Positions 36,330-37,565 of a DNA stretch of 48,677 bases are shown piece by piece (within the stretch, counting starts at the first letter, position 1; each line of letters opens with the position of its first letter). The translations under genes and the position numbers were made by a program. The notes beneath the pieces are model-generated. The model was not told the origin of the DNA and made no database searches. It was given only the letters and a program-made list of their open reading frames with translations. The DNA is taken from the NCBI GenBank assembly GCA_019057675.1, contig JAHLWX010000003.1, positions 1 to 48,677 on the forward strand, read 5' to 3'. Source of the DNA: Candidatus Jordarchaeum sp. LHC_1308. GTDB taxonomy: Archaea; Asgardarchaeota; Jordiarchaeia; Jordiarchaeales; Freyrarchaeaceae.

Positions 36330-37565
36330 TAAGTCTCCACCTTCCTGAAACCATTCGATTCACAGCCACTCTCTGACCGCACTCAGCACACACGGGGCGT
36401 CGCAACACTACCTCGACTTCGTCGCTTTTAATCGACGAAACGGTACCAACGGTCACTGCTGACCCAACATTCAGCATCAATGTTTCATTAACACGCACTT
36501 TTTCCACCTTAGAGAGCTCCTCGCTTCCCACGACGCGCTCCATTAGGTGAAGTTCAATGCACAAATCGTTACACACAGGTGGAAGTGTTCCAGGAGCACC
36601 CACAACATTTCCAATCAAACCATCGGCTTTAGTCAAAGAAGGATCCAGCAGTGTACCAATACCGATTAGTCCACCCGGCAAAGCTTCATTGAGTGGTACA
36701 TCACCAGCATGCAAACTTACAACATCAGTATAAATAGGCTCAAACCCACCCTTGACGGCGGCACCTGGTCGAATTTCAATCTCATCTCCAACCTTAACTC
36801 TACCCTGAACGATCGTACCTCCAATAACGCCTCCAACAAGATCCTCAGGTCTAGTCCCCGGCTTATTCACGTCAAATGACCTTGCCACATACATCCTCAT
36901 GGGCTTACTTGGGTCTCTGACAGGGTTAGGGATGCGTTCCTCCATAAACTGCAGCAAAACATCCAAGTTAGCGCCAAAAACAGCTGAAACAGGAATAATA
37001 GGAGCATCCTCAGCAAAACTACCTCTAATAAATTCTTTGATCTGCCTGAAATTTTCTAACGCCTTCTCTCTAGAGACAAGTTCGACTTTATTCTGAACAA
37101 TAACAATGTTCTTCACGCCAACGATTTCCAAAGCAGCAAAATGCTCCCGAGTCTGTGGCTGAGGACAGGGTTCATTAGCAGCAATAACAAAGACGCATCC
37201 ATCCATCAGCGACGCACCCGACAGCATCGTCGCCATCAGCCGCTCATGACCGGGCGAATCCACAAAGCTAATCTTCCTTACAAACTCAGCATCGCTCCCA
37301 CATTTAGGGCATTTCCATCCCCCAGCCATAGCCAAAGTAAAGTAACAGTCAGGAGGCGGGCACGACGGGCATTTCAAAACAATAGCATCAGCGTAACCCA
37401 GTTTGATCGTAATACCACGACGTTGCTCCTCACTATGACGGTCAGCCCAGACGCCAGTCAAAACATGAACAAGCGTTGTTCTCGGCCCCTCCGGCATCAG
37501 CCGCAGGGCTTACCGTGATCAACATGGCCCGCTGTGCCAATCGAAACCAAACTCTGCGTTCTCAT
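36307..37565 (-). CDS. eif2g: Translation initiation factor aIF2 gamma subunit, split by a 29-nt intron: complement(join(36307..37480,37510..37565))
   Basis: The track ORF (36307..37497) lacks the P-loop. Upstream, a 19-codon exon reads [19 protein letters not shown]. Removing 37481..37509 gives ...[39 protein letters not shown]. The product is 409 aa. Confidence 0.9.
37481..37509 (-). other. BHB-type intron in aIF2-gamma (29 nt)
   Basis: Minus strand: CGGU[AAG]CCCUGCGG-cugaug-CCGGAGGG GCCG[AGA]ACAACG. The central helix pairs 37515-12 with 37486-83 (3 G-C and 1 G.U). Two 3-nt bulges flank it. The inner helix is 8 positions with one G/G mismatch. Cleavage gives GGU AA|A ACA (Gly-Lys-Thr). Confidence 0.8.

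Follow-up and report, generated by a model that had tools for sequence, protein, structure and literature searches.

How can an archaeal translation initiation factor bind GTP when its gene, as annotated, lacks the GTP-binding loop? This question is raised by the gene for aIF2-gamma on contig JAHLWX010000003.1 of Candidatus Jordarchaeum sp. LHC_1308, an Asgard archaeon, of which we analysed a stretch of 48,677 nucleotides (nt; hereafter the window, by which we mean this stretch at its full length). The long open reading frame (ORF) of aIF2-gamma in the window is devoid of the G1 motif, or P-loop, and the same truncated product appears in public gene calls (P0001, 396 aa). Translational GTPases need this motif, and an aIF2-gamma without G1 would be unable to bind GTP. 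We observed, however, that the missing part of the protein is encoded upstream of the long ORF, in a short exon that ends with AA, the first two bases of the P-loop Lys codon. The third base of this codon follows after an insert of 29 nt, and joining position 37510 to position 37480 yields an in-frame coding sequence for GHVDHGKTT. We propose that the insert is very probably an archaeal bulge-helix-bulge (BHB) intron of the aIF2-gamma pre-mRNA, the removal of which would restore the P-loop.

The spliced protein of 417 aa aligns without a gap over residues 6-417 with aIF2-gamma of P. abyssi as present in the crystal structure 1KK0 (E = 2e-166), and it also aligns across the P-loop with intron-less homologs from Asgard and TACK archaea. 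The start codon picked by ORF callers (ATG, 37497..37495) is located within the insert, which besides holds a TGA (37498..37496) in the frame of exon 1. An earlier note on this DNA, made from the sequence alone, had claimed that the long ORF lacks G1, that the insert splits the P-loop Lys codon and that the ATG at 37497 lies inside an intron; all of this was recovered here, and the comparison of the N-terminus with orthologs, which it had suggested as a check, turned out gapless through the P-loop. The G+C content of the insert (79%, as compared with 44% for the window) is of the kind typical for structured RNA of thermophiles.

Does the insert fold as an intron of this type should? The unconstrained minimum free energy (MFE) structure contains a 4-bp central helix, a 5' bulge, an inner hairpin and an outer exon-exon helix (Table 1), at -28.7 kcal/mol and z = -3.3, with none of 200 shuffles being as stable. 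In canonical pre-tRNA geometry, each strand of the 4-bp helix is followed, two nucleotides farther 3', by a cut; the same rule applied to aIF2-gamma of the window gives GGU AA↓A ACA (arrows mark cuts or the resulting joins). The 3' site, AG↓A, sits within a 4x4 internal loop (AUCA opposite AGAA) that is closed by GUUG/CAAC. Since the 3' cleavage site falls in this loop and there is no clean 3-nt bulge, the motif is a relaxed BHB (HBh'-like) and not the strict hBHBh' form. The fold had been predicted earlier as CGGU[AAG]-helix-GCCG[AGA], of which the helix and the AAG bulge stand, while AGA as a clean 3-nt bulge has to give way to the internal loop.

Motif counts as such are uninformative. Loose BHB motifs are neither rare nor overrepresented in the window (389 matches, against 424 +/- 28 in dinucleotide shuffles), with a chance of about 1e-4 for any given pair of positions. 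The weight of the evidence therefore lies in the motif being placed, repeatedly and in independent sequences, exactly where homology requires a join. De novo scans for BHB motifs that would fuse two ORFs of the window gave too much noise to be of use, since ORFs are fused by any deletion that falls between adjoining genes of an operon.

Independent sequences came from relatives. The closest homologs of this aIF2-gamma belong to Candidatus Jordarchaeales, an order within the Asgard archaea. All five of the closest protein clusters (81-100% identity) are called with truncated N-termini, whereas homologs with no more than 68% identity are complete. The nucleotide sequences compared fall into five distinct versions, namely those of the window, of L001, of L002 (identical to L007 and L014), of L003 (identical to L004 and L005) and of L006. 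They were drawn from independent assemblies of NCBI, JGI, ENA and Logan, at least seven of them. In each version, the Lys codon is interrupted in phase 2 at one and the same place and splicing would yield the identical peptide, and the cut rule gives GG[UC] AA↓[AG] ACN, that is G-K-T, in 5/5. At the same time, the inserts themselves are only 50-80% identical in pairwise comparison, with 15-24 matching positions out of about 30 nt. The site is empty in the clade at 68% identity (L008-L010, L012, L015-L018), where CAC GGA AAA ACC is contiguous.

The structure has been kept while the inserts diverged. RNAalifold, run on the five versions, independently recovered the outer helix, the 4x4 loop, the 4-bp helix, the 3-nt bulge and the inner hairpin, with compensatory changes at 8 of the 17 pairs of this structure. 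Paired cells amounted to 91.8%, compared with 76.6% in column shuffles (none of 500 reached the observed value) and with 39-56% when the partners were slid. In the central helix all 20 cells are paired over the five genomes, the first pair being C-G in three of them and U-A in two, and the 5' bulge is canonical throughout (AAG or AAU). The outer helix takes the forms GUUG/CAAC, GUAG/CUAC and GUGG/CCAC in three genomes; two four-fold degenerate sites are involved, and this pairing (three of five genomes, three pair types) is not significant alone. Taken together, we regard the comparative evidence as decisive for reading the insert as a probable intron.

If exon 1 is a genuine part of the gene, it should be translated, and the substitution pattern speaks to this. 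Among four genomes, the exon-1 substitutions are distributed 8:9:70 over codon positions 1:2:3, from which we conclude that exon 1 is translated in the frame encoding the first half of the P-loop and that purifying selection acts on it in this frame. Its start is probably the TTG at 37589, which would give an exon 1 of 80 nt and the protein of 417 aa. This choice follows from the comparison of the genomes: ATG 37565 is not kept (L001 has ATT in its place and L006 lacks it), residues upstream of it are conserved (EAYEKA, EAYKKA, ASYEKA), the arrangement GGGGGT-N6-TTG (37601..37587) is preserved in four genomes (window, L001, L002, L003), and in L003 a stop codon lies just upstream of the conserved GGGGGT. 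GGAGGT is found in L006, whose TTG lies farther upstream. A TTG start for aIF2-gamma seems to hold across the clade. Thus, the short first exon that had been postulated before is present, but its supposed length of 56 nt, counted from ATG 37565, is the less likely one. Farther upstream, a conserved block resembles the archaeal consensus of BRE (transcription factor B recognition element) and TATA box and may serve as the promoter. The conserved signals upstream of exon 1 argue against a transcription start downstream of 37510.

Table 1. Positions, in the window, of the aIF2-gamma elements and of the other interrupted genes
Feature	Position	Strand	Remarks
Truncated aIF2-gamma ORF	36307..37497	minus	without G1/P-loop motif
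aIF2-gamma exon 2 (predicted)	36307..37480	minus	from third base of Lys codon, then TTLVHVLTG...; stop codon included
aIF2-gamma exon 1 (predicted)	37510..37589	minus	80 nt from TTG 37589; 56 nt with ATG 37565
aIF2-gamma BHB intron (predicted)	37481..37509	minus	29 nt; GCCCTGCGGCTGATGCCGGAGGGGCCGAG / GCCCUGCGGCUGAUGCCGGAGGGGCCGAG; predicted cuts 37510/37509 and 37481/37480
Central helix, CGGU/GCCG	37515..37512 with 37486..37483	minus	4 bp; 5' strand is formed by the last exon-1 bases before the bulge
5' bulge, AAG	37511..37509	minus	3 nt; predicted cut AA↓G
Inner hairpin, CCCU-G-CGGC UGAU GCCG-G-AGGG	within intron	minus	MFE fold
Outer exon-exon helix, GUUG/CAAC	37523..37520 (exon 1) with 37478..37475 (exon 2)	minus	fold and comparison
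Putative promoter, BRE/TATA-like	37638..37652	minus	GGAAAGTTTTAAATA (GGAAAsTTTTAAATA); invariant in 5/5 genomes, flanks diverged
Shine-Dalgarno-like GGGGGT	37596..37601	minus	6 nt upstream of TTG 37589
EF-1alpha	38240..39576	plus	35-nt BHB intron (predicted), 38525..38559
cbf5	23346..24408	plus	31-nt BHB intron (predicted), 23587..23617
kae1/tsaD	about 33913..32921	minus	13-nt insert, 33684..33672

Is aIF2-gamma the only gene affected? Three more essential genes of the window are interrupted, two of them in accordance with the same canonical rule, which greatly strengthens the intron reading for aIF2-gamma. The insert in the EF-1alpha gene forms a perfect 10-bp hairpin next to a central helix GGGC/GCUU with bulges ACA and AAA. 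The predicted join, GGGCAC↓AAGGAC, encodes DAPGH↓KDFIKNM in the G3 region and is identical to the empty site of relatives. After splicing, EF-1alpha gives one uninterrupted match of 436 aa to the intact genes of relatives, at 91-94% identity; among the relatives compared, this G3-region intron is present only in the genome of the window. In cbf5, the central helix is CACU/GGUG with bulges AGA and AAA, and the join CUAG↓ACCCUAAG restores GTLDPKVTG with no gap against PDB 2HVY. The catalytic Asp codon is cut behind its first base (G↓AC). Truncated Cbf5 calls were found only in the closest Jordarchaeales relatives; since Cbf5 is intact in other Asgard groups, this suggests that the intron was gained independently at the site known from Crenarchaeota.

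The fourth case, kae1/tsaD, is a less regular one. Its insert splits a Leu codon in GPGL↓GPCLR, and no gap against PDB 2IVN is left after removal, yet the 3' cut in the window would have to be made in a bulge of 4 nt and one nucleotide ahead of the outer helix. As judged from its predicted fold, this 13-nt insert is a relaxed variant, whereas EF-1alpha and Cbf5 follow the canonical cut rule. L001-L003 and L006 have an insert of 14 nt there, and the clade at 68% identity has, in this very place, an intron of about 29 nt with a textbook hBHBh' motif (L009, about 10436..10464). Overall, of the roughly 65 genes in the 49-kb window no fewer than four are interrupted, and all four inserts lie within the most conserved catalytic motifs of essential information-processing genes.

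The relatives carry further introns. In L002 (2914..2943) and L003 (2949..2981), a second canonical BHB intron interrupts aIF2-gamma within the His codon of GHVDHGK (GGAC↓...↓ACGUN). It is located upstream of the shared intron and confined to one subclade, and the two introns flank a micro-exon of 16 nt, ACGUKGAUCAUGGCAA. Both motifs form together in the minimum-energy fold of L003, and the strict hBHBh' form is seen in the upstream intron of L003 (intron A) as well as in Kae1 of L009. Besides, the EF-1alpha gene of L006 contains a 43-nt insert (about 196..238) in its P-loop Lys codon (CACGGCAA↓U...GCCGAA↓GUCGACU), a site homologous to that of the aIF2-gamma intron in a paralogous GTPase. This suggests site-biased gain of introns at GHVDHGK sites, or transposition between them. 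We make no claim that the two P-loop introns of L006 have a common origin, as the bases they share are only those forced by pairing (5' U, 3' GCCGAA).

Based on these observations, the following course of events can be proposed for aIF2-gamma. Transcription would start upstream of exon 1 from the conserved BRE/TATA-like element, and the 4-bp central helix would then arise from pairing between CGGU of exon 1 and GCCG at the intron's 3' end. The inner helix would be provided by the intron's own hairpin, and the short GUUG/CAAC helix between the exons would close the motif. We infer that splicing of the mRNA is performed by EndA and RtcB: EndA would cut the 5' bulge behind its second nucleotide (AA↓G), with a symmetric cut on the 3' side (AG↓A), and a ligase of the RtcB type would join the exons, whereby the Lys codon AAA and the P-loop GHVDHGKTT would be recreated. 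An mRNA left unspliced would give rise only to a 30-residue peptide ending at the TGA of the intron.

Certain observations weigh against this proposal. The outer helix is weak; two of the five genomes show one mismatch each. There is no canonical 3-nt bulge at the 3' site, and two bases of its loop are paired (UC/GA) in the MFE structure of the window, so recognition would require a permissive enzyme. Only five distinct and related sequences were available for comparison, and the shuffle control somewhat overstates the significance. Eight spliced variants of aIF2-gamma (three starts, four genomes) were looked up by exact match among about 15 billion proteins, and none was found. Finally, a Pfam scan did not reveal EndA or RtcB among ten large ORFs of the window. 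On the other side stands what is known of splicing in these archaea. Asgard EndA is reported to be an (alpha-beta)2 enzyme with an L1 loop that confers a broad specificity for relaxed BHB motifs (PMC5829648), and in the sister lineages Freyarchaeia and Atabeyarchaeia 92-95% of tRNA genes contain introns, which are often non-canonical and often multiple (PMC11291895). Taken together, this enzyme type and the intron-rich tRNAs of the sister lineages lead one to expect a very active and permissive splicing system.

The alternative that fares best accepts removal of the insert from the RNA, yet by other means than EndA and RtcB, e.g. by another structure-specific nuclease together with a ligase, or by a self-cleaving element. 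It could draw on the departure of the 3' site from the canonical bulge, and on the splicing enzymes being our own deduction. It would leave unexplained, however, why the geometry of the EndA rule is exact in aIF2-gamma, EF-1alpha, Cbf5 and the Kae1 of the sister clade. A self-cleaving or self-splicing element is further disfavoured by size, since 29 nt are too few for a self-splicing intron (the core of group I or II introns comprises hundreds of nucleotides), and by the lack of any Rfam ribozyme or group I/II match in the window; in fact, no Rfam match at gathering thresholds and no tRNA gene was found there. Altogether, we consider removal by such other activities improbable.

Could ribosomes deal with the insert instead, through programmed frameshifting or through translational bypassing (hopping) from the exon-1 frame into the long ORF? 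The two frames are offset, a shift would formally be possible between 37500 and 37509, and the insert forms a stable hairpin as do bypass and frameshift stimulators. Yet the inserts of the five versions measure 29, 29, 31, 29 and 30 nt, corresponding to phases 2, 2, 1, 2 and 0, and would call for differing shifts. L006 would need none at all, and still it has an in-frame TGA; indeed, every one of the five inserts holds a stop codon in the frame of exon 1. A frameshift product would besides carry about nine variable residues between the Lys and the Thr of GxxxxGK[ST]. As to bypassing, the take-off codon would be AAG (Lys) in two genomes and AAU (Asn) in three, with loss of the P-loop Lys, and neither a matched landing codon nor a slippery site is conserved among the five versions. 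The doubt that the earlier note had voiced about a frameshift at 37500-37509, on the grounds of GTP binding, was therefore justified, as three insert phases and in-frame stops exclude it; with bypassing included, a solution at the level of translation appears very unlikely.

Hardly more probable is a gene damaged at its N-terminus, be it a pseudogene or a gene for a P-loop-less protein made from ATG 37497, with exon 1 as a relic. While all automatic annotations do give a truncated aIF2-gamma, a relic would not be expected to show the third-position bias of exon 1, nor would a decaying gene retain 81-89% protein identity between genomes in its downstream ORF. The promoter-like element and the ribosome-binding site are placed ahead of exon 1 rather than ahead of 37497. 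Nor has the false start been conserved: the N-termini given by gene callers are MPEGPR, MPGGSK, MQALAG, MGIGFHGPK and MHALTG. A product without G1 could not bind GTP, as said above, and a second copy of aIF2-gamma was not seen in the same genomes. That the insert is an assembly or sequencing artefact, or an unrepresentative strain-level insertion, deserves next to no weight: the window is a metagenome-derived contig, but the feature recurs in five diverged versions, in no fewer than seven assemblies that were made independently by different projects with different pipelines.

We thus return to the BHB intron as the preferred reading, and to the question of why such introns sit where they do. 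The motifs hit by inserts are two GTPase P-loops, a G3 motif, a catalytic Asp and a GPGLG loop, some of these sites more than once: the P-loop Lys codon is interrupted in aIF2-gamma and in EF-1alpha, and the catalytic Asp codon of cbf5 in Jordarchaeales and in Crenarchaeota. The introns at the EF-1alpha P-loop site of L006 and at the crenarchaeal cbf5 site point to recurrent, site-biased gain. Speculatively, the intron may be regarded as an element, selfish or neutral in nature, that has survived in a place where its imprecise loss would be lethal; for a regulatory role of the aIF2-gamma intron we found no indication. Both gain and loss appear to be recent; the EF-1alpha G3 intron occurs in one genome only and the second aIF2-gamma intron in one subclade only.

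What would this mean beyond a single gene? Our data suggest that mRNA splicing by tRNA-splicing enzymes is far commoner in Jordarchaeales than the two accepted archaeal cases would imply. That the protein-coding genes of this order are host to a dynamic set of mini-introns spliced by an endonuclease strikes us as somewhat better than an even bet. If true, close prokaryotic relatives of eukaryotes would depend on routine and obligatory mRNA splicing, and for the interrupted genes an uncoupling of transcription from translation, kinetic at the least, would be required. To the two accepted cases, the finding would add an essential initiation factor of translation, from an Asgard archaeon, that depends on splicing for its GTP-binding loop. 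The interest lies in the density of the introns, in their turnover among close relatives and in tandem introns around a 16-nt micro-exon. This raises the questions of how ribosomes are kept from unspliced mRNA without a nucleus, whether BHB introns are mobile and prefer certain sites, and whether a dependence on mRNA splicing had already arisen in the Asgard lineage.

There are practical consequences, too. The clade's database models for aIF2-gamma, Cbf5 and Kae1 are all truncated or split because of these introns (P0001-P0005, P0121-P0124, P0130, P0158; TsaD split in L001-L006). Such wrong gene models affect marker-gene phylogenies and estimates of the completeness of metagenome-assembled genomes that make use of aIF2-gamma, EF-1alpha or Kae1.

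As a separate observation on the window, the gene for ribosomal protein L6 (14258..14857) and an unassigned ORF of 236 aa (14927..15637) are encoded on the minus strand inside an otherwise plus-strand ribosomal protein operon, between S8 and L32e. The segment 14258..15637 is an apparent local inversion.

How, then, does the aIF2-gamma intron compare with known systems? The most distant parallel is the IRE1-dependent splicing of HAC1/XBP1, where a small structured intron (26 nt in XBP1) is likewise excised by a protein endonuclease at stem-loops, the ends are joined by a tRNA ligase (RtcB or Trl1) and the reading frame changes. However, both the endonuclease and its recognition motif are different, and HAC1/XBP1 splicing is a regulated stress switch. 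The tRNA introns of Thermoproteales and of Freyarchaeia and Atabeyarchaeia (PMC11291895) share the motif, a length of 13-43 nt, relaxed variants and the occurrence of several introns per gene. In aIF2-gamma, by contrast, the intron resides in an mRNA, which means that the exons have to be joined in frame and that splicing has to compete with translation.

Among archaeal mRNAs, a review of 2023 lists only cbf5 and HVO_1309 as being spliced by the tRNA endonuclease (PMC10485636). In the literature searched, which did not cover most subscription journals, there was no report of BHB introns in aIF2-gamma, EF-1alpha or any Asgard protein gene. HVO_1309 of Haloferax volcanii (PMC7714728; reviewed in PMC10485636) is likewise an mRNA substrate with a spliced product in RNA-seq data, but it was found by depletion of the enzyme and belongs to a euryarchaeon with an alpha2 enzyme. 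The closest precedent is the cbf5 intron of crenarchaea (Aeropyrum, Sulfolobus; Watanabe 2002, Yoshinari 2006, Yokobori 2009 = PMC2738675), which also splits an essential catalytic codon, namely between the first and the second base of the Asp codon (PMC2738675), and the cbf5 gene of the window is interrupted at the identical site. Both introns have a relaxed BHB, an (alpha-beta)2 endonuclease in the host (in Jordarchaeales a probable one) and a patchy presence among related lineages. In contrast to the crenarchaeal case, splicing of which was shown experimentally, that of aIF2-gamma is read from sequence. It concerns another gene in another phylum (Asgard, Jordarchaeales), at least four genes are interrupted within 49 kb, and some Jordarchaeales relatives have two introns 16 nt apart in one gene. 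Thus, BHB introns in archaeal protein genes are already known, and aIF2-gamma would add a new gene to them.

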